From: a virus
Taxonomy: Duplodnaviria; Caudoviricetes
Virus record (IMG/VR): IMGVR_UViG_3300021256_000089
Location: 1 to 64,000 of that record
Reading direction: 5' to 3' (one strand)
Length of the DNA stretch: 64,000 bases
Each line of letters starts with the position of its first letter. The first letter of the stretch is position 1. The position numbers were made by a program, and so were the translations under genes. Below, in pieces: positions 15,968-64,000 of this stretch. The notes beneath the pieces are model-generated. The model made no database searches. It had not been told where the DNA came from and saw nothing but the letters and a program-made list of their open reading frames with translations.

Positions 15968-15970
15968 CAC

Positions 15971-16190: not shown

Positions 16191-16191
16191 T

Positions 16192-16263: not shown

Positions 16264-16294
16264 TTACTCTTTATACAGGAAGGAAGGAACAGCT

Positions 16295-16808: not shown

Positions 16809-16815
16809 GGTGAAT

Positions 16816-17094
16816 ATGGAAACTTCTTTCAGTTATACTGGCAAGTTTGGATACTTTTCCTCGGACGAGAAAAAGATGATCAGCAAAGTGCTAAAGCTCA
16901 GCAAAGAATATCCGGAGTTGGTCAGGATTCTGGCATTTCCGGAAGACAACGACGGCTGTTTGTACTGTCAACTCCCTAGTGAGTGGCTGAAAATTGCTCC
17001 GAAAAGGCGCGTTACGTTCACAGATGAACAACGGCTCGCCGCAAAACAGAGGCTGTTAGCAGCACGCAAAACAACTACTCAGCAGGAGGATTAA
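16816..17094 (+). CDS. Phage hypothetical protein
   Basis: GAGGTGA RBS; LPSEWLKI...TDEQRLAAKQRL pattern. Confidence 0.75.
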   Translation: METSFSYTGKFGYFSSDEKKMISKVLKLSKEYPELVRILAFPEDNDGCLYCQLPSEWLKIAPKRRVTFTDEQRLAAKQRLLAARKTTTQQED

Positions 17095-17097
17095 AGT

Positions 17098-17508
17098 ATG
17101 TGTTATTACGCAAGTGGAGGACAAACTGCTGGAACCGTATTCATCAGAAAAGATAACAATTTGCCTGCGCTCAAAGCATTGCTTTCGTCTAATCTCTTGC
17201 CGGATCGATTTGTGATAAACAATACAAATCTGAATGATGCTCTATGCTATCTTGGATGGAGTACGGACATGAACGCAGAGGGCGCTGTTGAATATATTTA
17301 TTTCGAATATGAAAAATGGTTTACAGACAGCGAGAAAACATTAGATGTAATTGCCAGGTTTGTAGAACCCGGCGTGATTATCGAGATGACAGGAGACGAC
17401 AATGCTCATTGGGCCTATGCGTTTAAGAACGGTACAATGCAGGAATTTAGCGGTGTGCTTACTTATCCCGGCCTGGATGAGTTCTTGAAAGGAAACCGCA
17501 ATGACTGA
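17098..17508 (+). CDS. Hypothetical protein
   Basis: GGAGG RBS; 136 aa. Confidence 0.75.
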   Translation: MCYYASGGQTAGTVFIRKDNNLPALKALLSSNLLPDRFVINNTNLNDALCYLGWSTDMNAEGAVEYIYFEYEKWFTDSEKTLDVIARFVEPGVIIEMTGDDNAHWAYAFKNGTMQEFSGVLTYPGLDEFLKGNRND

Positions 17509-17773
17509 AAAAACACCGAGGGTTTATGGCCCTCCGGCGGTATACCTGCTGTATACGCTTGATATCACGGCTGACATCCTGAGGCTGCCGCAGTTTCAGG
17601 TGTTCAGGCTGATGCCGCAGGCAAAGTACGCAATGGAGCAGCGGATACGTGATCTGATCATGCAGGGATATGTGGTCAGAAATGAAAGCTCAACAGGCGA
17701 TCTCAGATCTATTACACTGCGCAATCAGTATCGTGCCCTGCAAGTATGCTGCCGCTTAATTGCGGTGCAGTAG
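17501..17773 (+). CDS. Hypothetical protein
   Basis: Overlaps the previous stop; AAAGGA RBS. Confidence 0.65.
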   Translation: MTEKTPRVYGPPAVYLLYTLDITADILRLPQFQVFRLMPQAKYAMEQRIRDLIMQGYVVRNESSTGDLRSITLRNQYRALQVCCRLIAVQ

Positions 17774-17783
17774 GAGGCATAAT

Positions 17784-18074
17784 ATGTTCAAACTTGGATT
17801 CAAAGTTGGAGATATCGTTATAGGCAATGAGAAAGCGGGACATTACCATATTACCAAGCCTGGCACACGCTGGCTTGTAGTCCAAGTATGTGACACACCG
17901 CTTGAAGATCCGATCATTATTGTCGGACGAGACAAAACCACGCATGAACTAAAGATTACCGAATCGATGTCGATGTATCCTGTCCGGACATCCGAGTTCG
18001 ATTTAGCATCGATAAGTGTTGTTCCACTGACTGACCAGGAACGCACTCAAGTAATCGATTTATTGGAGAAATAA
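17784..18074 (+). CDS. Hypothetical SH3-like protein with C-terminal PLTDQERTQVIDLLEK tail
   Basis: AGGAGG RBS before ATG 17784. Confidence 0.75.
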   Translation: MFKLGFKVGDIVIGNEKAGHYHITKPGTRWLVVQVCDTPLEDPIIIVGRDKTTHELKITESMSMYPVRTSEFDLASISVVPLTDQERTQVIDLLEK

Positions 18075-18077
18075 CTG

Positions 18078-18320
18078 ATGGAAATAAAAACTGGTATGTA
18101 CGTGAAAATCATAAACAGACTAGCTACAACAGCGCGATACGGTTTCGCTACGCCAATGGAAACATGGATCGGTAAAACGGGTAAGGTAGAACACACGCTC
18201 GGAAACGAAGGTGTTGGCGTGGGAGGCTGGAACTGGAGCATTAAAGATGTTGTTCTAGTTTCGACACAGCCGCTGTCCAAAGAGGAGAAGACACAGTTCT
18301 CTGCCCTTTTGAAAGGATGA
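18078..18320 (+). CDS. Hypothetical SH3-like protein with C-terminal PLSKEEKTQFSALLKG tail
   Basis: GGAG RBS; similar tail to the upstream gene. Confidence 0.75.
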   Translation: MEIKTGMYVKIINRLATTARYGFATPMETWIGKTGKVEHTLGNEGVGVGGWNWSIKDVVLVSTQPLSKEEKTQFSALLKG

Positions 18321-18326
18321 AAACAA

Positions 18327-18410
18327 ATGGAACCATGGATCATTTTCGGAATCGTGACAGTGATCGCCATAGCTCTCGGATGGGCACTTCACATGGAAGG
18401 AGATTTGTAA
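18327..18410 (+). CDS. 27-aa membrane peptide (MEPWIIFGIVTVIAIALGWALHMEGDL)
   Basis: AAAGGA RBS; single TM helix. Confidence 0.55.
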   Translation: MEPWIIFGIVTVIAIALGWALHMEGDL

Positions 18411-18413
18411 TCG

Positions 18414-18554
18414 GTGGAAACAAGTCACATTTCCTTCTGGATTGAACTGAACGGCACATGGGTTGAGACTACGCAAGATGTATACTTGATTTTTGACGGC
18501 AACAAAGAAATCAGGACGGCACAAGACATCATAAAAACAATTGAAACGGAGTGA
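18414..18554 (+). CDS. 46-aa hypothetical protein
   Basis: AAGGAG RBS + GTG; overlaps the next start. Confidence 0.55.
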   Translation: METSHISFWIELNGTWVETTQDVYLIFDGNKEIRTAQDIIKTIETE

Positions 18555-18871
18555 TGTATATGCATAGTGAATATCTTGATTGGCTGTCTTCCGTTCTGGA
18601 AGAAGCCATCAACGCACAGGCGAAACAGGCTGAAGATCATGGTGAGATGCCAGAAGCAGAAGATGACAGCGTGAATCATCCCAATCATTACGCGGATAAG
18701 AATATCGAAGTCATCGATTACATCGAGGACACTTTGACGCATGAAGAGTACATTGGCTACTGCATCGGCAACGTATTGAAATATGTGTCGCGTTGGCGCA
18801 AAAAGGGTGGTCTCGAAGACCTGGAAAAGGCAGCCGTCTATCTTGATTGGGCGATCAAGGCGGTCGAATAA
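18551..18871 (+). CDS. DUF3310 (SaV-like) protein
   Basis: DSVNHPNHY...IEVIDYI...GNVLKYVSRWRKKGGLEDLEKA. Confidence 0.9.
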   Translation: MMYMHSEYLDWLSSVLEEAINAQAKQAEDHGEMPEAEDDSVNHPNHYADKNIEVIDYIEDTLTHEEYIGYCIGNVLKYVSRWRKKGGLEDLEKAAVYLDWAIKAVE

Positions 18872-18874
18872 CAA

Positions 18875-19771
18875 ATGGCTATTTTTGTTACAGGAGACAC
18901 GCACGGAGCAGAGCGTATTGGTTTTACTTCCTATGATGGTTTTCTGAGCCGCTTCAGCATGGCTGCGTTCCCGGAACAGAAAGAACTAACAAAAGAAGAT
19001 TTCGTCGTGATTCTTGGCGACTTCGGTGGCATATGGGAAACAAACAGATTCAAGTTCGAGGAGACAATGCAGGAAAAATACGCACTCGACGCGCTTGACA
19101 AACGATCGTTTACGACGCTGTTTGTGCCTGGTAACCATGAAAACTATGACCGTCTGACAGGATGCACAGACGAAGCCTTACTGAATTCGTGGATGTATGA
19201 AAAGATGCCACCATCTGAAAAGGCAAAGCTGCGCCAAGGTTATCCTCAGCAGTCATGGCACGGCGGCATGGTCAGAGTCATCAGACCTTCCGTGCTGATG
19301 CTTGAGCGCGGTGATATTTTTGATATCGATGGCAAAAAATGTTTCGCATTCGGCGGAGCAAGAAGCCACGATATTCGCGATGGCATCCTTTACCCTGCTG
19401 ATTATTCTGACAAGGAAAGCTTTGACGCAGAAAGACGGAAATGGATCCGGCATGGCAAGCAGTTTCGGATCAGCGGCATTTCCTGGTGGGAGCAGGAAGT
19501 CCCGTCTCAACAGGAAATGCAGCATGGGTATGAGACATTGCAGGAATTCCGCAAAACAGGCGGTGTTGTAGACTTCGTGTTCACGCACGACGCTCCATCG
19601 TCTGATAAAATCTATATGGGTTATGGCGGAGATCAGACTTTCAGCACCTATCTCGAATCACTGCGGGATAAAATGGATTACGGCAAATGGTTTTACGGAC
19701 ATCTGCACGATAATCGCAGAGTGTTGGACAAACATTACCTGCTGTATGATCAAATTATCCGTATTGCATGA
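18875..19771 (+). CDS. Calcineurin-like metallophosphoesterase
   Basis: GDTHG, LGDFG, GNHE, FTHD, GHLH. Confidence 0.92.
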   Translation: MAIFVTGDTHGAERIGFTSYDGFLSRFSMAAFPEQKELTKEDFVVILGDFGGIWETNRFKFEETMQEKYALDALDKRSFTTLFVPGNHENYDRLTGCTDEALLNSWMYEKMPPSEKAKLRQGYPQQSWHGGMVRVIRPSVLMLERGDIFDIDGKKCFAFGGARSHDIRDGILYPADYSDKESFDAERRKWIRHGKQFRISGISWWEQEVPSQQEMQHGYETLQEFRKTGGVVDFVFTHDAPSSDKIYMGYGGDQTFSTYLESLRDKMDYGKWFYGHLHDNRRVLDKHYLLYDQIIRIA

Positions 19772-19832
19772 TAATAAAAGACATAGACTGTACTCTTTTG
19801 TTATATTACAAAGTTAAGGCAAACATTTGTTC

Positions 19833-19861
19833 TTGACATAACATGGCCGCATCGGTACAAT
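19833..19861 (+). promoter_or_regulatory. Sigma70/SigA-type promoter upstream of the integrase
   Basis: TTGACA (19833-38), 17-nt spacer, TACAAT (19856-61). Confidence 0.8.
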
Positions 19862-19975
19862 ACTGGTGCGGCCTTCTTTTTCCTGGAGGTCCTATGGAAA
19901 TATCAAAAGAAGAGCTTCAGGCGATGCTTGATCAGGCCGCAACTGCCGCCGTAAGGCAGACGAACCTTGACAACT

Positions 19976-19991
19976 TGACAGATGCGGCTCC
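19976..19991 (+). repeat. Left copy of 16-bp inverted repeat TGACAGATGCGGCTCC
   Basis: Exact reverse complement at 21246-21261. Confidence 0.9.
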
Positions 19992-20007
19992 TGAGGAAGG
20001 AGCAGCT

Positions 20008-21063
20008 ATGCGCATCAAGCAAAGAGTATCGTTAAACGGCCAGACTCATTGGCTAACAGGCAGCACGCCGCAGGATATCATGGACGGCTACCTGAAACTT
20101 TGTTTCAAGGAAGGCGTTGCCATGCCGCCAATGCCTCAAATGATGGCACAGGACGATTCTCCCCTATTCGGTGACTACCTGATGTCGTTCCTGCACGTTT
20201 TCAAGAAAGGCCAGGCATCAAACACGCTCGTAAACCGCGAACGAATTATAAAAAATCACATTATGCCGCGTTTCGGCAAAACAAAGCTGAATCAGATTAC
20301 TGTTTCGTCGCTTCAGCATTGGCTTAATGAGCTTTCTGAGATGTACGCGAAGGAAACGATTCTGAAAATTGTTCACACAATGAATCCTGTGCTCGATTCA
20401 GCCGTAGAGGATGGCCTGATCACTCGAAATCCATTGCGATCTAAACGAATCGTAATCGGCGGACGGCCGACGGTAGGACACAAACCGATTCCGGCTCACA
20501 AGATGACAGAAATCAGGCAAAATCTGCACCGATTAGACGATCGGGAGCGCAAGATGGCGGCTCTTCTGTCTTATACAGGCATGCGATTTGAGGAAGTGCT
20601 CGGCGTCAAGTGGGAAGACTTCGATTTTGTGAATGGTTGGGTCACAGTACGGCGTGCAGTCGTGCATCCGACACGCAATCTTCCCGAGATTAAGTGTCCA
20701 AAAACGAAAACATCCGAGAGAGATATCCCAATTCCTAAAAATCTGCAGTCCGATCTCGGAATCCAGGGCACTGCGGGCTTTGTATTATCAAATGAGCGCG
20801 GTCAGCCTCTCAGCTACACGGAAGCCCGTCGCAGTTTTCAAAAAATAAAAAAAGAATTCGGCCTTGACGGGTACTCCGCCCATGATTTCCGCGACACTTG
20901 TGCTACCGAATGGCGGGAAAAAGGCATCCCTCTCGACGTCATTGCTCGTATGCTCGGCCATGCAAAGACAGAAACAACAGAGCGCAAATATGTGACATAT
21001 AGAGATGCCCTCTACACCAGTATCCGTAAGGCTTTGGAGCCTGCCGATGTGACACTTTTGTGA
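20008..21063 (+). CDS. int: Tyrosine recombinase/integrase (alternative in-frame start at 19894)
   Basis: SAM-like domain; catalytic TGMRFEE, AHDFRDT, LGHA, KY; GAAGGAG RBS before ATG 20008. Confidence 0.95.
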   Translation: MRIKQRVSLNGQTHWLTGSTPQDIMDGYLKLCFKEGVAMPPMPQMMAQDDSPLFGDYLMSFLHVFKKGQASNTLVNRERIIKNHIMPRFGKTKLNQITVSSLQHWLNELSEMYAKETILKIVHTMNPVLDSAVEDGLITRNPLRSKRIVIGGRPTVGHKPIPAHKMTEIRQNLHRLDDRERKMAALLSYTGMRFEEVLGVKWEDFDFVNGWVTVRRAVVHPTRNLPEIKCPKTKTSERDIPIPKNLQSDLGIQGTAGFVLSNERGQPLSYTEARRSFQKIKKEFGLDGYSAHDFRDTCATEWREKGIPLDVIARMLGHAKTETTERKYVTYRDALYTSIRKALEPADVTLL

Positions 21064-25965: not shown

Positions 25966-27381
25966 TCACCGTGGTTCTTCAAATATTTGTTTAGCATATG
26001 TTGACCAGTTTGTGGCAGTTCGATATGCTTTGAGAATGTTATGGGCTGGGCTGTACGGCACGTAGATCTTGCAGTCGGACGCAATATCCGTGAACGCGCT
26101 TATGTTAGCTAATTTCGGGGGAGTCGTTGCCTTCATGTGGTATTCGCTCACAGCCACACATCCGTTGAATGCGTCTCGGTAGATGTTTGTAACGCTTGAC
26201 GGAATCGTTACCTTAGTCAAACTCCGGCACATTTCGCATGTGGCGTAATTGATATCTACGATGCCTTCCGGGATTTCAGCTTTTACCAGATTATAGCAAG
26301 CGTAATATGCGCTCCCATTGATCGTCGTCACCGTGCTCGGAAAGATGACCTCGCGCAGCGTATAGCACCCTTCAAACATATACGCAACGATGGTAGTTAC
26401 GCCGTACGGCAACACGACCTTTTTGAGGTTTTGGCAGTTTTTGAATACAGCCGATCCGAATGTAGTTACGCCCTTCGGAATGGTGACTTCCTCGAGGCTT
26501 TGACAGGAATAGAATACAGACGATTCATCCCAACCAGTGATACCAGCCGGGACGGAAATCGTATTTGCCTGATAGCATTGTCCGAATGCCCCAGCGTGTA
26601 TAGTCGTTACCGTTCCAGGAATCGTAAATGACTTCAGAGAATAGCATGCCTCAAATGCGTGTCCGCCGATAGTCTCTATTCCGTTCGGCACCGTTGCAAT
26701 TTCCAGCCCAATGCAATAATTGAATGTGTAGCCTCCCAATGAGCCCGCCGTGGTTCCGCTGCCGATGAGGACCTTTCTGAATCTTAGGCTTTTGTACCAG
26801 TATTGTGCAATCGTTGATCCAGCAATCCCCTGGTTCTTATCCCCGCCGAACGAAATTGTTCCGCTCGTCACTTCAAGCGTGACGTCATATATTCCGCCAG
26901 ATGTATAGGTATGATCGTGGTCGTTCTCTCCTGTTTCGCTGTATGTTTCCGGTTCGCTCTCATCGCCCCAGTTCACCGTAACACCGTTGCTGACAGTCTG
27001 GTCCCACCGTATCGTTGCGACTTTCCTGTTCTTCGGCGCGTCATCCGGGATCTCAATCACAATATGTGTCTTCCCGTCAGTTGGGATTACCACATTTCCC
27101 ACATACACAGCTTGCTCCGGCATCGCCGCAAGTTGTTCCTTGATTTCTTCCAGCGTCCAGTTCCATCCTTGCGAGGTTAGCGGGATTTCGTCACTGCTGT
27201 GATCCGGATTGTTCGGAAGTGCGGAGAGTGCGTCTACTTCGCTCTGCGTATAGGAGTCTACAATGCTGCCATCGTAATCGATCAGCACCAGACGCGAGTT
27301 TGGCTTGATAGTGCCGCCACCGCTGCCTCCTCCTTCACCGCCACCGCTGCCAGTCTTACTGTAATAATATCTGTAAGGCAT
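25966..27381 (-). CDS. BspA-type leucine-rich repeat protein with PKD-like segment
   Basis: About 9 repeats of xIPxxVTTIxxxAFxxCxxL; VNWGD...HTYTSGGIYDV. Confidence 0.9.
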   Translation of the reverse strand: MPYRYYYSKTGSGGGEGGGSGGGTIKPNSRLVLIDYDGSIVDSYTQSEVDALSALPNNPDHSSDEIPLTSQGWNWTLEEIKEQLAAMPEQAVYVGNVVIPTDGKTHIVIEIPDDAPKNRKVATIRWDQTVSNGVTVNWGDESEPETYSETGENDHDHTYTSGGIYDVTLEVTSGTISFGGDKNQGIAGSTIAQYWYKSLRFRKVLIGSGTTAGSLGGYTFNYCIGLEIATVPNGIETIGGHAFEACYSLKSFTIPGTVTTIHAGAFGQCYQANTISVPAGITGWDESSVFYSCQSLEEVTIPKGVTTFGSAVFKNCQNLKKVVLPYGVTTIVAYMFEGCYTLREVIFPSTVTTINGSAYYACYNLVKAEIPEGIVDINYATCEMCRSLTKVTIPSSVTNIYRDAFNGCVAVSEYHMKATTPPKLANISAFTDIASDCKIYVPYSPAHNILKAYRTATNWSTYAKQIFEEPR

Positions 27382-27420
27382 TGTCTCACTCCTCAATATA
27401 ATAAAAGAGACCTTTCGGTC

Positions 27421-51974: not shown

Positions 51975-54900
51975 TTAAGAGCTGAAAGCAAAGTTGGCTG
52001 TTTGCAATCCTTGCTTGCTGAGCTCACGCACGAACTCCTCGCCGACCTTGCGGGCAACCTCTTCGTAGTCCGCATCTTCTTTCAGTTCCGCTTCATTGAT
52101 CTCAATGTTCAGCTTTTCAACCGTAAACCCGCTTACGTCACTGAACATGCTGTCAGAGATCATCGAGCTGAACGAAGGTACGCGAATCGTCGAGAACGCG
52201 TCGAGGAATGCACGCATTGCAGCCGTGTCTTCCGCACTAAGGAAGGCTTCGGGCTTTGTCTTCGAGCCGTCAACCCAAGCCGGACCGGTAAAGTCTACAA
52301 GGCCGCCTTGCGCATACGCTTTCTCGACCTTGCCATATTTAACCTTGTCGCCAACATGTTTGCGATCCATCGCTTGCTCTTCTGCAAGTTGTTTCGCTGC
52401 AAGTTTCGCATATTTCTTCGTGTAAAAAGCATCGCCCTCAGCAACGCCGGAGGCTCTTACACTGCCGTTCTTTTTGATGACTTCCCAGGAACGCTTGAAT
52501 TTATACTTTGGCTCATCATCAATTTCGTCTCCGTCGTGTTCCCCGGCATGTTCCTCAGAGACAAGCGCAGCGCCGCCAAGCTTTGCCGTACTCCACAAAC
52601 TCCAGGCTTCATTCCACTGCTCACGCAGCTGACGCTTCCTGTCGTTGCTTGCAGTACGGTACTCTTCGCTGTCCATCATGAAATCCATGAAACTCTCACG
52701 GTCTGTCATCACTGCCGCAACCTGATTCCAGTAATCACGCCAGTATTGATCCGTAAGCCCCTTCATTTCATCATACATGTCGCCCCAGTTCTGCACCATC
52801 AGCTCCTGCTGTTCCTTTGTGCTGTCAGCATATGTCTTATCGTTTTCCTTCAGCCACTCGATTAAATCTTCGCGGCTCTTCTTCAGCACATCATTCAGCT
52901 CGGTTGTGAAGTTGTTATTATCCTCGAGATAATTGTCGAGCCATTCCTGATACTGATCCGTATACAGATCATAGCCCATGATACGTTCGTCGAGGTCGGC
53001 TTTCTGTGCATCTGCTTCCTGATCAGCAATCTTCCAAGCGATTTCGTCCTGCAGCTTCGCAATCTTGTCACGCAGCTCTGCGGCTTCCCTTGTGCGGGAA
53101 CTGTCCATCTCAACACGGCTGAGCTGTGCCTGCAGGTTCGCAAGCTCTTCATACTTGCTTGCCTCGCTCGCAGCGTTCTTCCTCGCGTTCAGCCGCTCAT
53201 CGATCAGGCTCTTCTCCTGTTCGAGCGCGGCTTTCTTGTTGTCAATGTCCTGCTTCAGCAGATCCCACTCATCACGATAACGCTGCTTGATCAGATCAAG
53301 GATTGTGTTCTCCATGTCGACCGTGCCTTGCAGCCGCTGCCTGCGGAGCTCCTCACGGTTGTCAAGCTCGGCAGAGATCATATCCTGAATATCAACCTTG
53401 TATTGCCTGATCTGTTTGCGGTTCTCCTTCATCTGTTCGAGGTTATCGTGGATTGCCTGCGTATGCTCCTGGATCGCTTCTTCAGCGGCCTGGATTGCAT
53501 CGCGCAGCGCGTACCAATCGTCAGAGCCCTGCTCGGTAGCGGCCATCTCATCCCGCAGCGCAGAGATATTATCTCGCTGATTCTTAATCTGTCTACGGCG
53601 CTCCTCGTTTTCCTGCTTGATCAACGTGTTCTCATTTGTCAGTTCGCCAGCATTCTTGTAACGCGTACGACGATACTGAATCATTTTCAGCATGTGATCG
53701 TCCACGGATGCGGAATGTTTCTGACTCTCGATCAGCTGCTGTGCGTGGCTCTTGCCACCACCGCCACCACCTCTCGGAGGACGCGTTCCCTGATTGCCAG
53801 AACCAAGTTCATCAAGAATCCAATCGAAGCCTGTAGTGTTGCCATCACCATCCTTAAGCTCTTCAAAATGGCCTTTAATATGCATCGCTTCGAGAATTGC
53901 ATTTAATGCTTGAATTGTATTAGCCGCATCTGCGCCAATTGTTTCAATCAACCCTGCATCATTCCAGTTTACATTGCCATCGGCCACCGTAATAGCAGGC
54001 GCAAATGTATCAAACTGTCCCTGGAGTTCAGAGTTTAAAAGAGCAGCGATTTGATTACCATAATCTTCGACAGAAATCTTGTCAGCCTCATAAGATTGCT
54101 TAAGTGCATCGTCAATGCCGGTCGTGATTTTCTGATCTTTGCCGTATTGTTTTATTTGTTCGGTGTCGAATCCAGTGATCTGCGCTATTTGATCCATCGT
54201 TGTTTTATCGCGTTTGCCAGCTTTAAACTGTTCTCTGTAATATTGTCTGTACGACAAATTATTCAGTGCATTTCTCATATCGGTGAGAGCTTTTGCAGAT
54301 TCAACGGCATCTCCCTGAACATTCTTTAAATAATTGAGAACCTCATCGCCCCTGGACCCAAACATGGATTTCGCTGCTTCTTGCGCTTCACGCATTGACT
54401 GTGCTAATTTCTTCCAATCTTCAGCCGTAACAAGAGCACCTTCACCAAGCTTTGCGAGAATTTCACTTCCTCCATCAAAGCTTTCGAGTGCTGTTTTAAA
54501 TACGTCAAACGATACAGCATCTCCGCTGAGCCGTTGGTACTCGGCAAGCATACCCGCCTGGTCGTTGCTTTGCAGCGCAGACATGAACGTTGCTCCGATG
54601 CCACCTTCTCCAGTAAGGATTGCCTGGTTCAAATCGTAGCCGTAACCCTTTTGTCCAAGCTGATAGTTCTGTAACATTTGCTGGAAGATCGGCCAGTCAA
54701 GCGTGCCTTCGGATGTAGCCTGAAGCGCGCTGTACAGTTCTTTCGGGAGCACCTTCGACATATTATCGCGGGACCAGGTGACACCAAGTGTGCTGCTGAT
54801 GCCGCTCATGAATTCCTGGAACCCGGTTGCGCCGTTTGCAACATTCAGCAAATCGAGACGTTTGCCGGATAAATCAGGATTTTCCTGAACATACTCTGTC

Positions 54901-57900
54901 CACAGACCTGCGAATATATCCTCTGGAGACTGGTAATACTGTTTGCCGTTATACATAATATCTGCAGCAGTATATCCAAGATGCCACCCATTACGCTTGG
55001 CTTCATCTGGTACACTGTCACCTCGGATATAAGACAATGCTTGATCTAAATTTTCAAACGGTATTCCGTCAACACTAAAAGGCAATGCTTCCGGATTGTC
55101 CGTTCTTAGTAAAGATAATCGATTCGCTTCGGTAGATGTTGCAAAACGTATTTTTTCTTCTGTTTGTGCGGCGATATAATCAATATATCGTTGTCTTTGA
55201 TCTTTAGTCATCTGGCTAAAAGAAAGTCCGCTCTCCAAGCCAGCGTCAGCCGAATAGGTCTCTGAATTCGTTAACATGTTGCTAATAGAATTATCCAATG
55301 CAGTTTTGAGATTCTCATCTGAGACGTAAGCAGAAGAAAGTCCTTTGTTGCTCATCAAACCATACACGCGTTCGGACACGTAACCAGACCAATCTGTCAA
55401 CAACGATTCCACTAATTGATATAACCAGCCGTTTTCCCCAGCTGACTCTATTAATCCATCGTAAATTAATGAGATTACATCGTCAGATAAAGAAGTGTTA
55501 TATGATTGTATTAGCGTAATGAAGTCTCCTGATGTCAGCGATTGATTAGACAAAGCGTGATCTAATTCTTGATTGCCAGTTGATACACCCGACAATCTTG
55601 TTCTGAGATCTTCTGCATTCCTGTCGTAGAAAACTTTTAAAACATTTTGCATTGATTCATTGTCGGCTAACGTGCGCATATTAGACCGTTTCCAGCTAAC
55701 ATCTGAATTCATGTTTGTATTCACAATAAATGCCTTATACAATTCAGGGAACTGCTTACTCAAAGTAGAAGCATCTACTTGATTATCTTTGATTGTTTGT
55801 AAAAGTCCTACAGGAATCGACTTTTGTAAATCGTTGAAAGTGTTTAACGGTGTTAACGTGCTTTCGATAAATGAAAGCATCTCCGTTGACCATTTCTTTC
55901 GACTGTGTTCGCGGGCTGCATTATAATCAGCAAAGCTCATGTTGCCAGCCTCAAAAGCATTTTGCCATAAATTCAAAGTATCTTTCATATTCTGCACATC
56001 TTCCCGCGAAAAATCAGGAAAATTATTTATATTAGCCTCAAGAAAAGATAATAGTTCATCAACATCTAACGATGAAACATCTTGCCAATCTTCCGATATT
56101 TCGGGACCGTTTTCACCTTCAATGGCATACGATGCCAATCGGACGAGCGCACTAGGCAGTCCATCTTCACCAACCGAGTTCACGTTGGCAATATTCAGCA
56201 TATTATGCGCACGTTTATATTCATCACTATTCTGCAGATTTAACATTTGCAACACGTTGTCATATAGCTGCTGTTCTTCTGCTGGTGTTAATTTGTCTTT
56301 ACTGTACGTCACATATCGATTCCAGTATTGATCTATAGCCGACTGTCCTGTTGTTTGTTCCAACAGATCAGCGAGATTGTCCATCGTAACTCCAATACTG
56401 TGTGCATCTTGCCATTGTTTTTCATATGCTTCTGCAGAACTTTGGCGCGTTGCTTCATATTGTAATGTAGCAAGGGTTTGTCTTGTGGTGTCGGTTCGTG
56501 CAACAATCCCGTTCAAAGAATCCTGAGCTCCGTTAACGATCTCTGCCCAACGCTCAAGTTTGTCCGAAGTTGAGTCAATTTCTTTTCCTAATTCGGGGAA
56601 CAAACCTGTTAATTGTGCCAGATTGTTGTTGAATTGAATCTTATCGGCATAAGCCATATTCTCGCCAAGTCGCTGATAAGATTCACCAAGTCTTTTGGTA
56701 TCATCAATCAATTGCTGATAACGATTGTTGCGATCGTCGGTATCATGCACATAAGCTTCGAGTGTCTGTTGTTCCATCATCCCTGGTTTTTGCTTCGCTT
56801 GTGCATTTCCTATTCCACTTGCCACACCAAGACCGATTGTTCCAAGCAGCAACGTACCTCCGACAACAGCTCCGGCAACGTCTCCGGTCAGCACTTTGAT
56901 GACAGTCGTCAATGCAGCGACTGCGCCTGTGATAGCTACAATTGTCGTAACAACATTGCCGCCATTTTCCGTAATCAGTCGTAAACCATTCACGAATCCG
57001 GTTATCGCGTCAACGATACCTTTGATTGCTCCGCTCTTAACAAGATTCTCAACCAGCCCGTCAAATGTACTCTTCAGCTCGTTGATTGACGCCTGCAAGC
57101 TCTTTGCCGCAATCTCATACTTACTCTCCGTGATGCCTTCGCTGTCCTCAGACAACCCGAGATACTTTGCGAAAGTTTCACCGTTGTCTTCGGCCATGCC
57201 CTCCATCAGCGTAGAGAACATATTGCCTGCACGCACGCCGGCAACACTTGTCGTAATGTTCGCACGCTGCACGTCGCTCATGTCGCCCCAGTTCCTGGCA
57301 ATGTCATACATGATTTCCGTAGGCGAACGGAACGTATTCTGATCAGACCGCAGATCGATACCTGCAAGACGCAGCGCGGTTTCAATTGTAGACAGATCCG
57401 TCGTGTCACCGTTCTTGTCGGAGACATAGCCAGTAGACTGCACCTGCCGCAGACGGCTGAACAGGGTATTCAGAGCCGTACCAACCTGCGTGCCAGACAG
57501 CTGCGTTGTCGAAGTCATGACCGTGATCATGCTCGTCAGTTCGCCGTAACTGACACCGGCAACCTTTGCGGCAGCCGCGCACTTCTGCATTGCTTTACCG
57601 ATCTCGACAGCCGTTGTGGCTGCGCTGTCGCCGAGAGCGGTAAGAGCGTCCATTGCTTCTTCGGCACTTTCAACAAGACCGTTCTGTAAAGCGGTCGTAA
57701 TGATCTTTGTGGCATCCTGAACTTTAGACCCGGTAACCGTAGCGAATTTAATGATCGCCTCGGAGCGGTCAGCAACTTCGGTATCACTCAGACCCTGGCG
57801 GTACAGAGCAGCCTCAACTTGACTGACATTGCCGACGCTTGTACGCAGATTGATCGCACGGTCGATCGTGCTGCTGCGGATATCCTGCATCTGCTCGTCA

Positions 57901-60900
57901 CTCTTCATCGTGATCGTTTGGATCTCGGTCATCGATGCGTCGAATTCCATCACGAAGCGCTTGGCTTCTTGGATAGCCCTCTGGAACATCCGGCGACCAA
58001 GCTGCTGCGTAAGACGAGTGACAGAGACTGCTATTTTGTCGAACACCGTACCGACTATCTGATTCGAATTATTAAATCGATCAAGATCTCTTTGCGTATT
58101 ACTGAGCGCTTGACGATAGCCTTCGACTGCCCGTTGAGAATCTTTGATTCGATTGTTTATTCTATCGATGTCTGCCTGATCAGTAGCAGTCTCTAATTGC
58201 GCGTTCAGAGTTGCTTGCCGATCCTGTTCCCCTCGTATGCGCTGCTGATAATTAAATTCATTTTGCCGCAACTGTTGGCCATAGTTCATTCGCTCGTCAT
58301 ACATTCTTCCGAGCATTGTTTTGGTATATCTGCTGCCATGCATGCGTCTAAAGTTTTCAGACGCATAAACTGCTTGCTGCGCATTAAACTCAGATTGAGC
58401 AGCTTGCATTTCGTCACGACGTGCAAGAGCTTCATCTTGAATTTGAATTTGACGCGCTACTGTTTGCCTGTATTGATTCAAAGATTCTTCTGATAATAAA
58501 CCTTCTATTTGATTGCGCGTTTCACTGTCTTTCGGTGTTCTAGATTTTAATTTTTGTAATGTCGCTATTCGATTGTCTACAGCCCAATCTATTCTTTGAG
58601 CTCTCGTTGCATTTTGCCCTGTTTGTTGAAGCGTTAATTGGGCTACGTTCGTTTGTAAAGCATTAAAGTTTTGATCGTATTCTAACCCTTGTCGAGCGAG
58701 ATAGTCTTTTTCTGCTTTTTTATCAGAATATTTTCTTAACCAGAAAAGACGTTCTTCATCGTTATCGGCAGCTTTGATATTTTTTAATATATCGTTTCTT
58801 CTTGCCGTCCTCATCCGATAAATAAACTGGTCTCTGCTTTCTGCTTGATCATTATATTTGTTTTCAAACGTATCTACTCGTACACCTTTGTCTCCAAAAG
58901 ACACGGATCTTTCTATGCCATATATATCCGCATCAATTCTCTGCTTATTCTCTAAGCCGCCATTTTCGATATAATCATTGATACGATCTTTGCTTTTCTT
59001 ATATTGTTCTATGATTCGTCCAAGCTGATTTGCTATATCAGTGTCTCCATTTTTCTCAGCTGTGGTTTTTTCTTCTGTAGCTTTTTTAATTAATGCCTCA
59101 TAAGATAAAACTCGTTGTTCTAATTCTGTTATCTCATCGCGCTGTTTCTTTGCAAAAATCTCTTTCGGATTTACTTTACCGAGTAATTCAGAGACACGAT
59201 ATGCATCGTCTTCTATTTCGCGATTGACGAATTTTTCAGCGGAACCATCTTTCCCGTAGAGTTGTGCTTTTATTTCGGCCTCTTTTTGTTCTGCTGCTTT
59301 AAACGCATCTCGAGCATTAATTGCCTGATTGACTCTGTCTTGTTCGGCAGCTTTATCCTGTGCTGATTGATTGAAATCAACTAACCATCCTTCGTTCGGC
59401 TCATTGATTTTTGAAGCGTCAAAGTATGCAGAATTGTTCTTTAATCCTTTATACGTAGCACTACTTTCTTGGATTATACGAAGAGCTGACAATAAAGGAG
59501 AATCCGTATCAGATTTCTTAACACCATTTAACATATTGTTGACTGTTTCTTCCGCATTGTTTAAATCTGTAATTGCTGCTTTTATTTCCAGCTCATTGTT
59601 TTGTCTCCTGGCTTGTCTTGTTTTGTTTTGTATTTCTTCGATGTCTGCTCTTATTTCTGGATTGTCTCCATATTTTGCCGACATGGCTTGAAGAGTTGCG
59701 TCTGAAAACAACATGTTTAATTCGTTTCTTCTTGATTCGAATCTGCTTGTGTGCCTAAACATTTCTCCATCTGCCATTCTATTGCTTTCTTTATACAAAG
59801 AAGATCTTATTTGAGACAGATGTTCTTTGTTCTCAGCATATTGAGACAAATAGAAATCTAATGCATTTTGTTCTTGTGCACTCATCGTTGCATAATCTCG
59901 TCTATTAGAAAAAATCTCATCAACTTTACGTTTCGATTCAGCTCGATCTAATAATTCTCTCGGAGATAACAATCTGGTAACCTCATCAAACAATCCGTTG
60001 TTAGACGTGTCTGTTAAATCGCCATACAAAGATTGATATGCATTAACCATCTTATTTGCCCAAGATTTTTTCAACTCTTCTCCAAGCGTTCCTGCTGAAA
60101 CATCCAATCTGTGAATTTGGCCAGTTTTTGGATCCCATCCTTCGAATTTTTCAAAATTGCTTTCCCATTCGCCCGTCTGTTGATTGTATTGGCCGAAGCC
60201 TTTGAATATCTCATATTCTTTGGCGCGCACCGTATCTCCAGAGGCGTTTGCGTTATGATATTCCTTGGCAAGCTCTTCGAATAGCGAAGCATAATATGCA
60301 CTTTGAGGAATAGATTCATCTGCTCCTGTACCAGAAGATTTATAGTCTACGATTCTAATCTTTCCATTACTGTCTAATACCATCATGTCTGGTTTTACAG
60401 TCGTAGCATATGTTCTTACTTCTTCGCCCTGCTGAGCTTCTGGCGCTAGTTGTTCTCTTGTCGTTCTAGTTCTAACAACATTACCGTTGGCATCTGTATA
60501 TACATGCCTATAAACATTACCAGAATCATTAGAAGGAGCTATTGTGTATTCTTTGTTATTTTTCCCGACAAGGACTCCTTCGCGTCCAACAAGCCTGTCC
60601 CCCGGATGCAAAATATTCGTTAAAAACTTTTCAAAGTTGCCAGCAGTTGCAACTGTACCATCTTCGTTGAATACACCAAGCAAGGCGTTTAAATGCTCCT
60701 GTATCCCTTGCAGCGTTCCACTCTTCGGCACGCCGCTTGCTATCAGACGGCCATCTTTAGACGATAAAGTTACACCTGCTTGATTCTTCAAATCCCCAAG
60801 ATCTGTTCGTACGCCTTCTAAAATTGGCGCTCTCATTAAGTTGAATAAATTGTATGCTGCCTGAGCTGGTGTCATTGCTTGCTTTGTGCCTAATGTCTTC

Positions 60901-63900
60901 CAATATGATTCTATTCCTGTATGCATTAATTGGCCTATGTGAGTCATCGGGTTGCTTCTCGCGCTGGAAAAACTTGAATCTATAATACTGGCCAAATTAT
61001 ATGCTTTCGTATTGCCACTATATAGCTTATTATATCTTTCATAATCAACTTCACCAGTAGTTGTTTTTAATCCAGGAGCAATTGGTTGACCGGTTTCTAC
61101 ATCTATTACTTCTATGCCAGGTATTTGTAATTGCGCATCTTTATTCTCGTCGCTATTAATCCAATGCTTTAATTGACTCCATGCAAAAGCCCATTTAGAT
61201 CCAGAAACATGCCCGGTTTTTGCTATCTCTCTCGCTCTTGATTCGATGCCAGCTCTCAACGTAGCTCTTTCTTCATTTGTTTCCGGATTGTTAGCTTGTA
61301 ATTCCTTGATACGTTTAGCCGCATCTGCTTGTTGTTGCTTAATGGCTTTCATAAAAGCATCTTCGACTTCTTGACGGGCTTCGTCATCAATAGTCGGGGT
61401 CAATAAACTTTCAAGAACATCTGCATAGGCACCCGCCAACAAATCGTTGTTTTGATTGGCTTGCTGTCTATACTGTTCTACCGTGTCTCGTATATTTGTT
61501 TCATTCATAGCTTCCCCAGAATTCAACTCTTTAAGTCTTTTTCTGAAAGAAGCTAACAAAGAAGATTCCGTCGTGAGAGAATAGCCATACGCTTTCTCTC
61601 TGTCATTAATGCTTGTTTCCCATTTTTGTGCGATTAAATTACCTTTATCTAGATCATTTTCTCCAACCACTCTGTTTCTTAAAACGGTTTGCTCATATAA
61701 ATCAAGATACCATCTCGCGGCTTCTGATTCAACACTGGAATCTGAATGTCCATATTTAGTGTTATACCAGTTTTCCATTTTTTGTAGAGCATCGGTGTTA
61801 AAGTGACCAGAACCTAAATTACGCGCCTCTGTTCTTCTTAAAGCTAATCCTAGCACACCGTGAGTATCAAACATGGTAGGAAGGCTGGTAGAAAAAATAT
61901 TAACGTCTTTCAACGCTTGCACAGGATCAGAAGAATTAGATGCTATCTTTAATGCACGCAGAAAACGTTCATGAGTAGCTCCTTTCTCCATAACTCCTAA
62001 TCCCTTTAAATCTATTTGTGCACCAGTGTTTTGACCTTCTGATGTTGCCTTGTCGTATGCTCGATTGGCGGCAACAATTTTCATCATTGTTTCCCTATCG
62101 ACCATGCTTGCTTCTTGTTTCCTTATAGCTGCAGATGCAGACGCCATATCTTGCCGCGAATTAATGTGATACATGATAGCATCTCTTATAGATTCAACAA
62201 TTGTTCCAGATTTCTGCTTCTCGGGTTGATCCTTTTGTAGCCCGACTTGAGATTTTTCAATGTCTCGTAATTGAGCATAATAATCTTCAAAATATTTTTT
62301 TGCCTCTCCAACTGCTTGAGGCGGTAATCCGAGGAATGCCGTGATCGTATCACCATCAAAGTCGCCAGTATTCATTTGATATAATTGCGACGGGGTTGTT
62401 AGCATCGACAACAAGTCTGAAGGATCTCTTCCGAGTTCTTTTAGCCTTTTTCTATATGTGGAATCTATAACATATTTCTTCTTCGATGCGTTATAAGTAA
62501 TAGCTCCATTTCTTATGGCTGCCGAAATAGTACCCATCGTAGAAGGATTGCGTGTCATTGCATCAATTTGTTCGTCTCTAATTCCAGGTGCATATACTAT
62601 CTGATTAGCACCATTGTTCTTCCTATCATCCATGATATCAGGCATAAACATTTTCCACTCATCTGGCATTTGAGACAAATCTTGCCAGTTTTCAACGCCA
62701 CCGACATATTGTAAAGCCTGTAAAATTGCTTCCGGCAAAACTCCAGGAGTAGCTTCTGCGTAGCCCGACCATTTAGATCCTTTAAGCAACAAATCCCCTC
62801 TTGCTCTCGACTCCTCTAAACTGCGAATTTCTGATGCTATTTGTCTATTCGCAGATAAGCTTGTCCAGATCCAAGAAGGATCACGTTTCATTTCCTTTTG
62901 AGCAGACGCATTGTTCTTAAAAAACTTCTGACGGCCCTCTAATGTTTGAAGTTCTCTAAATCTTTGTTCATATAATTCTTCAGACTGCTTTCTTAATTCT
63001 GGTCCAGCATGTATAGCTCGAGCAATAGATTCCGGCATAACATCTTTTCTACTTTGCATTTGCGCATCTGTATGCATAGAAATGAAACCACTATGTCCTT
63101 CTCCTGCTGCAAGCTGAGAATACTCCATAATCATACGTGCACGTTCTTCAGGTAACAATTGAACCATGCCATTGCTATCTATGCGTCTAGCTTTTTCTAA
63201 GTCTTTTCGTTTTACAGTTGGAAAATGATATGAAAAGTCTTCCAGCGGCATGTGTAAAAAATTGTCTATACCTTTCATACCGGTTGCGTCTATGAGATAA
63301 GGCAACGATTGATCCATTACATTTACAAAGTACCTTTGCCGAAGATCATCAATTTCTTCTTGTGTCAATTTAATTTGTTTGCCTTTTTCATCGTTTCTAT
63401 ATCCGGTCATAAATTGTCTTAAGATTTCAGCATCGTCTGTCGTAGGCAAATACACTTCGCCGTTGTCTCCGAACAAAGGAGTATTGCTATCAACGCCTTT
63501 GACTGCACCTTGCTTGACTTGATCTGAAAGAGACCTCAGCATAGGTCTCCAATCAAGCGCGCTTAAATAAAACTTATCTTGTCCGTGAGCAAACCTCATT
63601 TGTTGACCATAATGGAATATTTGAGGATCGCCCCACGCTTGGCCGTCGATCCGTAATCCGGTATCTTTGCCAATTCCAAGCATGTTATAAAAAGCACCCA
63701 TATTCACAAAAGCTCCGGGATTATTAAGAAGACGATAATTTGTACCAAAGACATCCTCGTAATAATGTCCACTCGAATTAAGCTTTTTTACATTGTTTAT
63801 TTGTTTGATTGTTTTAGCTTTATCATCCGGAACAATTAGTCCACCATAGTTACCAAGTTCAAAAGGCGACGGAAAATGATTGTCTTTGAATGTTTTTTCT

Positions 63901-64000
63901 ATGCTATTTTTCTGCGAAACAGGAATCATAACGATATCATCGTGCCCGATAAACGCTACCGTATAATCATCAGTTTCTCCTGTTTCTTCGTTCCATCGAT
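51975..64000 (-). CDS. Giant tape measure protein (>4000 aa, 5' end beyond the window) with RNAP-like and nuclease-like domains
   Basis: TP901-type TMP core (MDALTALGDSAATTAVEIGKAMQKCAAAAKVAGVS...QVGTALNTLFSRL); C-terminal YAQGGLVDFTGPAWVDGSKTKPE; frame stays open from 63929 to the window end. Confidence 0.93.
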   Translation of the reverse strand, partial: RWNEETGETDDYTVAFIGHDDIVMIPVSQKNSIEKTFKDNHFPSPFELGNYGGLIVPDDKAKTIKQINNVKKLNSSGHYYEDVFGTNYRLLNNPGAFVNMGAFYNMLGIGKDTGLRIDGQAWGDPQIFHYGQQMRFAHGQDKFYLSALDWRPMLRSLSDQVKQGAVKGVDSNTPLFGDNGEVYLPTTDDAEILRQFMTGYRNDEKGKQIKLTQEEIDDLRQRYFVNVMDQSLPYLIDATGMKGIDNFLHMPLEDFSYHFPTVKRKDLEKARRIDSNGMVQLLPEERARMIMEYSQLAAGEGHSGFISMHTDAQMQSRKDVMPESIARAIHAGPELRKQSEELYEQRFRELQTLEGRQKFFKNNASAQKEMKRDPSWIWTSLSANRQIASEIRSLEESRARGDLLLKGSKWSGYAEATPGVLPEAILQALQYVGGVENWQDLSQMPDEWKMFMPDIMDDRKNNGANQIVYAPGIRDEQIDAMTRNPSTMGTISAAIRNGAITYNASKKKYVIDSTYRKRLKELGRDPSDLLSMLTTPSQLYQMNTGDFDGDTITAFLGLPPQAVGEAKKYFEDYYAQLRDIEKSQVGLQKDQPEKQKSGTIVESIRDAIMYHINSRQDMASASAAIRKQEASMVDRETMMKIVAANRAYDKATSEGQNTGAQIDLKGLGVMEKGATHERFLRALKIASNSSDPVQALKDVNIFSTSLPTMFDTHGVLGLALRRTEARNLGSGHFNTDALQKMENWYNTKYGHSDSSVESEAARWYLDLYEQTVLRNRVVGENDLDKGNLIAQKWETSINDREKAYGYSLTTESSLLASFRKRLKELNSGEAMNETNIRDTVEQYRQQANQNNDLLAGAYADVLESLLTPTIDDEARQEVEDAFMKAIKQQQADAAKRIKELQANNPETNEERATLRAGIESRAREIAKTGHVSGSKWAFAWSQLKHWINSDENKDAQLQIPGIEVIDVETGQPIAPGLKTTTGEVDYERYNKLYSGNTKAYNLASIIDSSFSSARSNPMTHIGQLMHTGIESYWKTLGTKQAMTPAQAAYNLFNLMRAPILEGVRTDLGDLKNQAGVTLSSKDGRLIASGVPKSGTLQGIQEHLNALLGVFNEDGTVATAGNFEKFLTNILHPGDRLVGREGVLVGKNNKEYTIAPSNDSGNVYRHVYTDANGNVVRTRTTREQLAPEAQQGEEVRTYATTVKPDMMVLDSNGKIRIVDYKSSGTGADESIPQSAYYASLFEELAKEYHNANASGDTVRAKEYEIFKGFGQYNQQTGEWESNFEKFEGWDPKTGQIHRLDVSAGTLGEELKKSWANKMVNAYQSLYGDLTDTSNNGLFDEVTRLLSPRELLDRAESKRKVDEIFSNRRDYATMSAQEQNALDFYLSQYAENKEHLSQIRSSLYKESNRMADGEMFRHTSRFESRRNELNMLFSDATLQAMSAKYGDNPEIRADIEEIQNKTRQARRQNNELEIKAAITDLNNAEETVNNMLNGVKKSDTDSPLLSALRIIQESSATYKGLKNNSAYFDASKINEPNEGWLVDFNQSAQDKAAEQDRVNQAINARDAFKAAEQKEAEIKAQLYGKDGSAEKFVNREIEDDAYRVSELLGKVNPKEIFAKKQRDEITELEQRVLSYEALIKKATEEKTTAEKNGDTDIANQLGRIIEQYKKSKDRINDYIENGGLENKQRIDADIYGIERSVSFGDKGVRVDTFENKYNDQAESRDQFIYRMRTARRNDILKNIKAADNDEERLFWLRKYSDKKAEKDYLARQGLEYDQNFNALQTNVAQLTLQQTGQNATRAQRIDWAVDNRIATLQKLKSRTPKDSETRNQIEGLLSEESLNQYRQTVARQIQIQDEALARRDEMQAAQSEFNAQQAVYASENFRRMHGSRYTKTMLGRMYDERMNYGQQLRQNEFNYQQRIRGEQDRQATLNAQLETATDQADIDRINNRIKDSQRAVEGYRQALSNTQRDLDRFNNSNQIVGTVFDKIAVSVTRLTQQLGRRMFQRAIQEAKRFVMEFDASMTEIQTITMKSDEQMQDIRSSTIDRAINLRTSVGNVSQVEAALYRQGLSDTEVADRSEAIIKFATVTGSKVQDATKIITTALQNGLVESAEEAMDALTALGDSAATTAVEIGKAMQKCAAAAKVAGVSYGELTSMITVMTSTTQLSGTQVGTALNTLFSRLRQVQSTGYVSDKNGDTTDLSTIETALRLAGIDLRSDQNTFRSPTEIMYDIARNWGDMSDVQRANITTSVAGVRAGNMFSTLMEGMAEDNGETFAKYLGLSEDSEGITESKYEIAAKSLQASINELKSTFDGLVENLVKSGAIKGIVDAITGFVNGLRLITENGGNVVTTIVAITGAVAALTTVIKVLTGDVAGAVVGGTLLLGTIGLGVASGIGNAQAKQKPGMMEQQTLEAYVHDTDDRNNRYQQLIDDTKRLGESYQRLGENMAYADKIQFNNNLAQLTGLFPELGKEIDSTSDKLERWAEIVNGAQDSLNGIVARTDTTRQTLATLQYEATRQSSAEAYEKQWQDAHSIGVTMDNLADLLEQTTGQSAIDQYWNRYVTYSKDKLTPAEEQQLYDNVLQMLNLQNSDEYKRAHNMLNIANVNSVGEDGLPSALVRLASYAIEGENGPEISEDWQDVSSLDVDELLSFLEANINNFPDFSREDVQNMKDTLNLWQNAFEAGNMSFADYNAAREHSRKKWSTEMLSFIESTLTPLNTFNDLQKSIPVGLLQTIKDNQVDASTLSKQFPELYKAFIVNTNMNSDVSWKRSNMRTLADNESMQNVLKVFYDRNAEDLRTRLSGVSTGNQELDHALSNQSLTSGDFITLIQSYNTSLSDDVISLIYDGLIESAGENGWLYQLVESLLTDWSGYVSERVYGLMSNKGLSSAYVSDENLKTALDNSISNMLTNSETYSADAGLESGLSFSQMTKDQRQRYIDYIAAQTEEKIRFATSTEANRLSLLRTDNPEALPFSVDGIPFENLDQALSYIRGDSVPDEAKRNGWHLGYTAADIMYNGKQYYQSPEDIFAGLWTEYVQENPDLSGKRLDLLNVANGATGFQEFMSGISSTLGVTWSRDNMSKVLPKELYSALQATSEGTLDWPIFQQMLQNYQLGQKGYGYDLNQAILTGEGGIGATFMSALQSNDQAGMLAEYQRLSGDAVSFDVFKTALESFDGGSEILAKLGEGALVTAEDWKKLAQSMREAQEAAKSMFGSRGDEVLNYLKNVQGDAVESAKALTDMRNALNNLSYRQYYREQFKAGKRDKTTMDQIAQITGFDTEQIKQYGKDQKITTGIDDALKQSYEADKISVEDYGNQIAALLNSELQGQFDTFAPAITVADGNVNWNDAGLIETIGADAANTIQALNAILEAMHIKGHFEELKDGDGNTTGFDWILDELGSGNQGTRPPRGGGGGGKSHAQQLIESQKHSASVDDHMLKMIQYRRTRYKNAGELTNENTLIKQENEERRRQIKNQRDNISALRDEMAATEQGSDDWYALRDAIQAAEEAIQEHTQAIHDNLEQMKENRKQIRQYKVDIQDMISAELDNREELRRQRLQGTVDMENTILDLIKQRYRDEWDLLKQDIDNKKAALEQEKSLIDERLNARKNAASEASKYEELANLQAQLSRVEMDSSRTREAAELRDKIAKLQDEIAWKIADQEADAQKADLDERIMGYDLYTDQYQEWLDNYLEDNNNFTTELNDVLKKSREDLIEWLKENDKTYADSTKEQQELMVQNWGDMYDEMKGLTDQYWRDYWNQVAAVMTDRESFMDFMMDSEEYRTASNDRKRQLREQWNEAWSLWSTAKLGGAALVSEEHAGEHDGDEIDDEPKYKFKRSWEVIKKNGSVRASGVAEGDAFYTKKYAKLAAKQLAEEQAMDRKHVGDKVKYGKVEKAYAQGGLVDFTGPAWVDGSKTKPEAFLSAEDTAAMRAFLDAFSTIRVPSFSSMISDSMFSDVSGFTVEKLNIEINEAELKEDADYEEVARKVGEEFVRELSKQGLQTANFAFSS

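Follow-up and report, generated by a model that had tools for sequence, protein, structure and literature searches.

A giant open reading frame (ORF) on the minus strand of a phage genome fragment was found to encode a tail tape-measure protein whose N-terminal part, residues ~450-1350, is predicted to be an intact-looking RNA polymerase (RNAP) of the two-barrel type. The analyzed sequence, referred to here as the window, was bases 1-64000 of the 81,558-bp IMG/VR viral record IMGVR_UViG_3300021256_000089. Going by the predicted structure and by analogy with gp96 of Thermus phage P23-45, it is likely that this polymerase is injected with the tape measure and carries out transcription of the first phage genes without the host RNAP. 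The completeness of the record was estimated at 67%; the record itself gives a genome of at least 81.5 kb, and the full genome size is perhaps ~105 kb.

The complete ORF was retrieved from the record. It consists of 4,565 codons at genome 51975-65672 (minus strand), and the part within the window, 51975..64000, encodes residues 559-4565. The start codon is an ATG at genome 65672, preceded by AGGAGG 8 nt upstream and located 1,672 nt past the end of the window. Translation of the minus strand yields QMNTGDFDGDTITAF. A preliminary description of this DNA, made from the window alone, had reported an ORF of more than 4000 amino acids that began outside the window and had no stop between the polymerase motifs and the tape-measure core, and the full sequence bears this out: a single stop-free frame runs from the polymerase motifs through the PF10145 core to the stop at 51975. 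The same description cautioned that the polymerase domain might be incomplete in the window, and indeed residues 450-558 lie beyond it, up to genome 64325.

The giant ORF is the tape-measure protein of an SPbeta-like long-tailed phage. Its core, residues 2609-2812 (57237..57848, minus strand), matched Pfam family PF10145 (PhageMin_Tail) with an E value of 5.3e-28, and eight PHROG tape-measure families matched the ORF as well (E down to 1e-31). Genes for the terminase, the portal, a YonB-like capsid and a YomU-like tube (YomU_Tube) were found upstream, and a 416-amino-acid protein followed by a 1,980-amino-acid YomG_N/Prophage_tail protein was encoded downstream. Because of the PF10145 core, the tape-measure PHROGs and the flanking tail genes, the translated 4,565-residue protein was assigned by synteny to the position that the tape measure takes in tail modules of the SPbeta type.

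The polymerase domain (residues ~450-1350; 61623..64000 and on to genome 64325, minus strand) was delimited with an AlphaFold model and its fold matches. It contained four clusters of invariant or nearly invariant residues: D676-G677, Q691-x-R693-x(5-7)-K700, R1041-x-P1043, and T1102-G-D-[FY]-D-G-D-T1109. The first two, which are D676-G677 and Q691-x-R693-x6-K700 in this protein (63573..63647, minus strand), were assigned from the family alignment to the first barrel, a beta-like double-psi beta-barrel (DPBB-B). The third is the RxP motif of the second, beta-prime-like barrel (DPBB-A; 62544..62552, minus strand), and the fourth (62346..62369, minus strand) carries the metal-binding Asp triad, D1104/D1106/D1108. 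The order of the motifs, with the basic-residue barrel first and the barrel of the RxP and the Asp triad second, is that of the single-chain two-barrel enzymes. In the model the Asp loop precedes strand 660-665.

Conservation of these residues was nearly complete. The pattern TGD[FY]DGDT was retained in all 19 of the homologues that span the site, which have 23-54% identity to the query, and the three aspartates were invariant in 20 of 20 sequences, as were R1041, P1043 and Q691. D676, G677, R693 and K700 were kept in 19 of 19 sequences. The RxP motif lies 61 residues ahead of D1104 and therefore passes the filter of [RK]xP 20-100 residues before the triad that was used in Supplementary Data 4 of an earlier study (PMC10770324). 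In the structure-based alignment of that study (PMC10770324, Supplementary Figs 7-9), the first-barrel elements read 'DGVG ... QGRFGSAKG' in QDE-1 and 'GDG ... VQVVRG ... GLKG' in gp96. Judging from the sequence pattern, D676-G677 and Q691/R693/K700 would be the counterparts of DGxG ... QxR....KG in QDE-1, gp96 and gp64 and of the beta-subunit element, and R693 and K700 would be the two conserved basic residues supplied by the barrel without the Asp triad. Farther downstream, M1176...R1184 and Y1206-D1207-x-x-T-S (62034..62150, minus strand) are conserved within long helices after the Asp loop, and are the candidate bridge helix and the candidate start of the trigger loop, respectively, assigned by spacing and pattern only.

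Each of the three motifs singled out in the preliminary description fell on a different conserved element of the active site, and their order is the one that it had recognized from the single-chain enzymes. Its DFDGD at 62349-62363 proved to be residues 1104-1108, kept as D[FY]DGD in every homologue spanning the site, and its RNPS at 62541-62552 is at the invariant RxP. Its third motif, HGQDK at 63573-63587, was correct in position and in the element to which it belongs, but only K700 of it is conserved, and the likeness to the HGxK motif of the beta subunit did not survive, since the pattern is the QDE-1/gp96 form (DGxG ... QxRxxxxKG) and not HGNKG.

Structure prediction and fold searches support a single-chain two-barrel (double-psi beta-barrel) RNAP fold for residues ~450-1350. 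The AlphaFold2 model of this region, built from the 20-sequence family alignment, had a mean predicted local distance difference test score (pLDDT) of 74.5 and a predicted template-modeling score (pTM) of 0.72. When it was compared with 48,161 representative PDB chains with VIA-align, only five chains reached Z ≥ 8, and all five were single-chain two-barrel RNAPs: maize RDR2 (Z 12.5), QDE-1 (11.3), P74-26 gp62 (10.2), which is homologous to the non-virion RNAP of P23-45, and two chains of P23-45 gp96 (9.4 and 8.5). The best unrelated chain had a Z score of 6.2, the largest subunits of multisubunit RNAPs scored 5-5.7, and crAss gp66 scored 5.1. The matches to bacterial beta-prime (Z 5.3-5.7) covered model residues 509-781, a stretch that takes in the second barrel as well as the bridge region. 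Re-alignment of 320 chains ranked by Foldseek gave 18 chains at Z ≥ 8, every one of them RDR2, QDE-1 or gp96; the top match was maize RDR2 (7w82; Z 12.7 over 470 residues, root-mean-square deviation (rmsd) 3.9), and QDE-1 reached Z 12.0. Together, the matches to RDR2, QDE-1, gp62 and gp96 had Z scores of 8.4-12.7 over 357-490 residues.

Other structural searches gave similar matches. Foldseek against the PDB placed Arabidopsis and maize RDR2 and Neurospora QDE-1 on top (probability 0.97-0.80, with alignments over 900 columns), and against BFVD it placed two phage proteins annotated as RNA-dependent RNA polymerase (RdRP) on top (E 5.7e-6 and 4.7e-5). The nearest cluster in the ESM Atlas was a viral PF05183 RdRP (template-modeling score 0.74 by target). 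The segment between the barrels (model residues ~360-510, ~150 amino acids) was modeled with ordered secondary structure, both helical and strand; its pLDDT was 80-94 for the most part and fell to 66-68 at model residues 421-440. The pair of double-psi barrels on which the preliminary description depended was thus predicted, and two-barrel RNAPs alone reached Z ≥ 8.

The fusion of the polymerase to the tape measure, which the preliminary description had proposed for this one sequence, is conserved across the whole family. When residues 450-1350 were searched with HMMER against 1.84 billion representative proteins, only 24 related clusters came back. Thirteen members were full-length, and all of them were giant tape-measure proteins of 4,352-6,710 amino acids, with the polymerase domain at approximately residues 420-1390 in each (13 of 13) and the tape-measure core and C-terminus common to all. 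Only two relatives were found in IMG/VR, one with an ORF of more than 4,626 amino acids, and a tblastn search of 50,697 cultured phage genomes with the N-terminal 1,800 amino acids gave no match.

Three shorter candidates were examined, and there was no evidence among the family members for a free-standing form of the polymerase domain. The first, P0024 (937 amino acids), was rejected as a stand-alone polymerase because it is an artifact of TAG recoding. On its 110-kb contig, one in-frame TAG is followed by 31 open codons before a 1,204-amino-acid tape measure, and if TAG is taken as a sense codon, six of the called genes, with five in-frame TAGs, join into an ORF of at least 3,967 amino acids (L011:6912-18812, plus strand). 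The YonB- and YomU-like genes of this contig likewise carry an in-frame TAG. This relative is therefore probably a TAG-recoded phage, as its sequence suggests, in which case gene calling with the standard code breaks its giant gene up and makes the pieces look free-standing when they are not, and the fusion would extend to it as well. The other two candidates, P0017 and P0004, were rejected as split forms: their contigs are only ~10.5-10.9 kb long, and the giant gene is interrupted by frameshifts inside the nuclease domain described below (L012:4870-4905 and L013:9960-10045, with the DYK motif also deleted in L013). Because these are frameshifts on short single contigs, they are most likely assembly errors. 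Both breaks fall in the same domain.

The polymerase is directly followed by a second putative cargo domain. The preliminary description had mentioned that the phage also carries a nuclease domain. At residues ~1493-1879 of the tape-measure protein (60036..61196, minus strand), motifs and a structural model indicate a RecB/AddB/Cas4-type PD-(D/E)xK nuclease. The motifs G1580...H1584, P1761-D1762, D1776-Y-K1778 and Q1790...Y1794 were invariant or nearly so across the family; conservation was scored in an anchored alignment, in place of two fragment alignments in which MAFFT scattered the fragment sequence over the polymerase region. The model of residues 1300-1900 was of moderate confidence (pLDDT 63.7) and matched AddB (Z 8.9 over 230 amino acids), Dna2 (8.3), the Cas4-family protein ACE1 (8.2), and AdnA/AdnB (7.3-7.8). 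By its predicted fold and its series of motifs, then, the second cargo domain would be a RecB-family nuclease. The whole protein of 4,565 amino acids holds one cysteine (C2698), which is far below expectation for such a length, and the Fe-S cluster of AddB, Cas4 and Dna2 is consequently absent here. Beyond the tape-measure core, two adjacent hydrophobic segments were identified at residues 2906-2954 (56811..56957, minus strand; Kyte-Doolittle > 1.6 in 19-residue windows). By analogy with other tape-measure proteins and with the membrane domain of gp96, this pair may be a membrane-inserting part, or hairpin, of the tape measure.

Sequence comparisons did not connect the polymerase domain with any named family. 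The N-terminal 1,800 amino acids had no match in Pfam, PHROGs or the PDB, which includes gp96, by phmmer and profile searches at E up to 10, and neither the protein nor 10 family members matched Pfam, including the RdRP family PF05183, at E up to 10. With hhalign, the N-terminus of gp96 aligned over just 24 columns around the triad, which pairs with gp96 residues 776-784, at a probability of 6%. The hhalign probability for YonO was 0.9%, with an insignificant alignment at the first-barrel motif, and the best BLASTP E value was 0.21. Counted from the triad, the presumed bridge helix lies at +68 and the presumed trigger loop at +102, nearer to QDE-1 (+55 and +94) than to gp96 (+181 and +248). 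In comparison with gp96, YonO and the Pfam RdRP family, the domain is thus best described as its own family within the QDE-1/RDR/phage clade of single-subunit enzymes because of its structural scores, this spacing and its ordered connector, without sequence similarity to these RNAPs. The two-barrel families listed in PMC10770324 number 23, among them 'Cyano_RUMTOR_01356' and 'CAC1139'.

The closest known arrangement is gp96 of phage P23-45, which was cited in the preliminary description as a precedent and is a real one: it is an active virion RNAP that is fused to the tape measure and transcribes the pre-early genes (PMC10770324; PDB 8H2M, 8H2N). Both proteins, counting with P23-45 its relatives P74-26, G20c and TSP4, are giant tape measures (5,002 amino acids in gp96 and 4,565 here) with an N-terminal single-chain two-barrel RNAP, the beta-like barrel first, a TG(x)DFDGDT loop, and hydrophobic or membrane segments downstream, and the structural match had a Z score of 9.4 over 358 residues. 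There are clear differences. The DFDGD motif is at residue 1104 here, after an extra N-terminal region of ~450 amino acids, and at residue 779 in gp96. The connector of gp96 is short and disordered, with no clamp, while the connector here is predicted to be ordered and ~150 amino acids long, which suggests, as far as the model can be followed, that the flat, clamp-less architecture of gp96 would not apply. A RecB-type nuclease is present here, whereas the metallopeptidase domain of gp96 was not detected in this protein. The phage is of a Bacillota-type, SPbeta/c-st-like kind and encodes an integrase, a second RNAP resembling gp64 was not seen, and the candidate bridge helix follows the triad at a distance like that in QDE-1. 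Orthology with gp96 was rejected: the domain is nearer to QDE-1 and RDR2 in structure, and its likeness to gp96 in sequence is limited to TG(x)DFDGDT.

QDE-1 of Neurospora and plant RDR2 (PDB 2J7N, 7Y7P, 7W82, 7RQS) were the best structural matches, with Z scores of 11.3-12.7 over 460-490 residues that include both barrels and the bridge region, and share the DGxG ... QxR....K ... DxDGD pattern with similar spacing. They differ in that PF05183 does not match here, identity in the structural alignments is only 8-10%, and those enzymes are cellular, free-standing and RNA-templated, whereas the polymerase here is built into a protein of a phage tail. SPbeta's YonO belongs to the same enzyme superfamily, and the phage shares SPbeta-like YonB (capsid), YomU (tube) and YomG (tail-tip) genes, but YonO is a free protein of 839 amino acids with the motif DNDGD, encoded away from the tape-measure gene yomI. 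Finally, gp66 of phi14:2, a crAss-like phage (PDB 6VR4), is also a single-chain virion RNAP within a giant multidomain protein. It matched over 505 residues, but weakly (Z 5.1, rmsd 6.3); its motif is DFDxD, it is no tape measure, and crAss-like phages are short-tailed.

Tape-measure proteins occupy the tube of the tail and are ejected upon infection (PMC10770324). Because the polymerase sits in the tape-measure protein ahead of the ruler, the phage probably delivers a transcription enzyme of its own into the cell. The polymerase-nuclease-ruler polypeptide would be built into the tail, and at infection the polymerase would leave the virion with the tape measure, with the RecB-family nuclease directly behind it traveling along. 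The hydrophobic pair at residues 2906-2954 may help to form a conduit through the membrane. The polymerase would then meet the entering DNA and make the first phage transcripts independently of the host RNAP, as gp96 does. From the predicted fold, the conservation of catalytic residues and the conserved fusion, which this analysis showed, we infer that the enzyme would be catalytically active, use a DNA template, be present in the virion and act at this early time.

Several points weigh against this interpretation. There is no link at the sequence level to characterized RNAPs beyond the motifs, and the polymerase family is known from sequence and predicted structure alone. Model confidence is only moderate, and pLDDT drops to 44-60 at model residues 570-620, which belong to the second barrel; moreover, the placement of R693 and K700 relative to the Asp triad comes from the motif pattern. 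A folded domain of ~100 kDa with an ordered connector would have to pass through the tail tube. No distinctive promoter set was found: no 11-14-nt k-mer was repeated beyond A-runs, and only generic AT-rich words were enriched between genes. Sigma-70-like sites in the first 20 kb of the window were not enriched either (25, compared to 21.5 ± 4.5 expected in shuffled sequence), a result that is uninformative. A second, non-virion RNAP was not found in the 81.5-kb record, which is 67% complete.

The alternative that survives best, although we consider it unlikely, is that the polymerase is active and injected but that its main job is something other than gene expression: pulling in the genome by transcription, making replication primers, or copying RNA. 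RNA polymerases pull the T7 genome into the cell by transcribing it, and this phage has a large genome, a nuclease attached to the polymerase and no dedicated promoter motif. Furthermore, the nearest structural matches are RNA-dependent enzymes, and QDE-1 is reported to have both DNA- and RNA-templated activity (PMC9508822). However, the characterized phage members (gp96, gp64 and crAss gp66) are all DNA-dependent transcription enzymes, the phage encodes a DNA polymerase III alpha itself, and DNA pull-in and gene expression can coexist.

It is improbable that the N-terminal polymerase, alone or together with the nuclease, is instead cleaved off or made separately and serves as a late polymerase outside the virion, within the cell that produces the phage, in the manner of YonO, which transcribes the late genes of SPbeta. 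The structural module is SPbeta/c-st-like, no separate YonO-like gene was found in the 81.5 kb, and two relatives are broken between the polymerase and the ruler. YonO-like single-chain RNAPs do occur in phages of this kind, including c-st (PMC7824862). Yet late transcription cannot be started by a polymerase whose only coding sequence is part of a late gene, the breaks are the nuclease-domain frameshifts that are most likely assembly errors, the 937-amino-acid form is the TAG-recoding artifact, and the fusion was retained in 13 of 13 full-length members.

There is very little probability that the domain is an inactive remnant of a polymerase that now serves the tail as a structural or plug element. 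It has diverged strongly and is missed by every sequence profile, and its activity is itself a prediction from sequence and model, but the residues that remain invariant at ~25% identity are the catalytic ones (the three aspartates, the RxP, the R and the K), a pattern expected of purifying selection on catalysis. A chance occurrence of DFDGD in a long Asp-rich protein can be dismissed: although the protein is 7.3% Asp, its composition predicts only 0.003 occurrences of DFDGD and 0.11 of D-x-DGD, homologues keep the motif without exception, conservation extends to the RxP and basic motifs that flank it, and the fold is that of the two-barrel enzymes.

Two other genes, for NrdD and for the c-st-like terminase, suggest anaerobic Bacillota as candidate hosts. 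The terminase was nearest to that of Clostridium phage c-st (30.5% identity), and all of its matches were to Bacillota phages. On the plus strand of the window, annotated genes included DNA polymerase III alpha with PHP, NTPase and finger domains (304-3441), the anaerobic ribonucleotide reductase NrdD (5478-7607), and a tyrosine integrase (19843-21063). The site before the integrase (19833-19861) was the sole near-consensus sigma-70-like match in window positions 1-20000. Seven tRNA genes (Gln, Ile-TAT, Leu, Pro, Ala, Lys and Thr) were located at 13190-16263, also on the plus strand, in the early/replication arm. At the end of the tail-fiber region, the minus strand encoded a 476-amino-acid BspA-type leucine-rich-repeat protein (25966-27396; E 3e-49), which may be a host-adhesion module. 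Directly upstream of the giant gene and beyond the window, there was a 141-amino-acid DUF3310 protein (genome 65705-66130, minus strand; L002:3705-4130), and a DUF3310 gene was found in the same place in a relative (L013:4372-4818). The preliminary description had called the phage temperate and tRNA-integrating; it does carry an integrase and tRNA genes, but scans of species-representative genomes with the pattern [MH]NTGDFDG and with the terminase identified no prophage copy, close relatives or host.

In the literature covered by full-text searches, a tape-measure-fused RNAP has been described only for P23-45 gp96 (PMC10770324), and delivery of a polymerase on the tail ruler has been demonstrated experimentally in just one group of Thermus phages. 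The family described here is unrelated to gp96 in sequence, belongs by structure to another branch of the two-barrel enzymes, occurs in phages of another lineage and comes with a nuclease attached. One possible scenario, which we put forward tentatively, is an independent second origin of the fusion in SPbeta/c-st-like Bacillota phages, in which a polymerase of the QDE-1/YonO clade and a RecB-type nuclease would form an injected 'first-minute' cassette, the polymerase starting transcription on the entering DNA and the nuclease acting on host or incoming DNA, and would replace the free YonO-type polymerase that related phages have. Since the polymerase domain was recognized by no profile library, its discovery is also a warning for annotation. 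Such a divergent two-barrel polymerase provides material for studying the structure and evolution of the QDE-1/RDR-phage enzymes, and it raises the mechanical question of how a ~100-kDa polymerase with a clamp-like connector would travel through a tail tube. A second family would make delivery of a polymerase on the tail ruler a recurring solution rather than an oddity of thermophiles.

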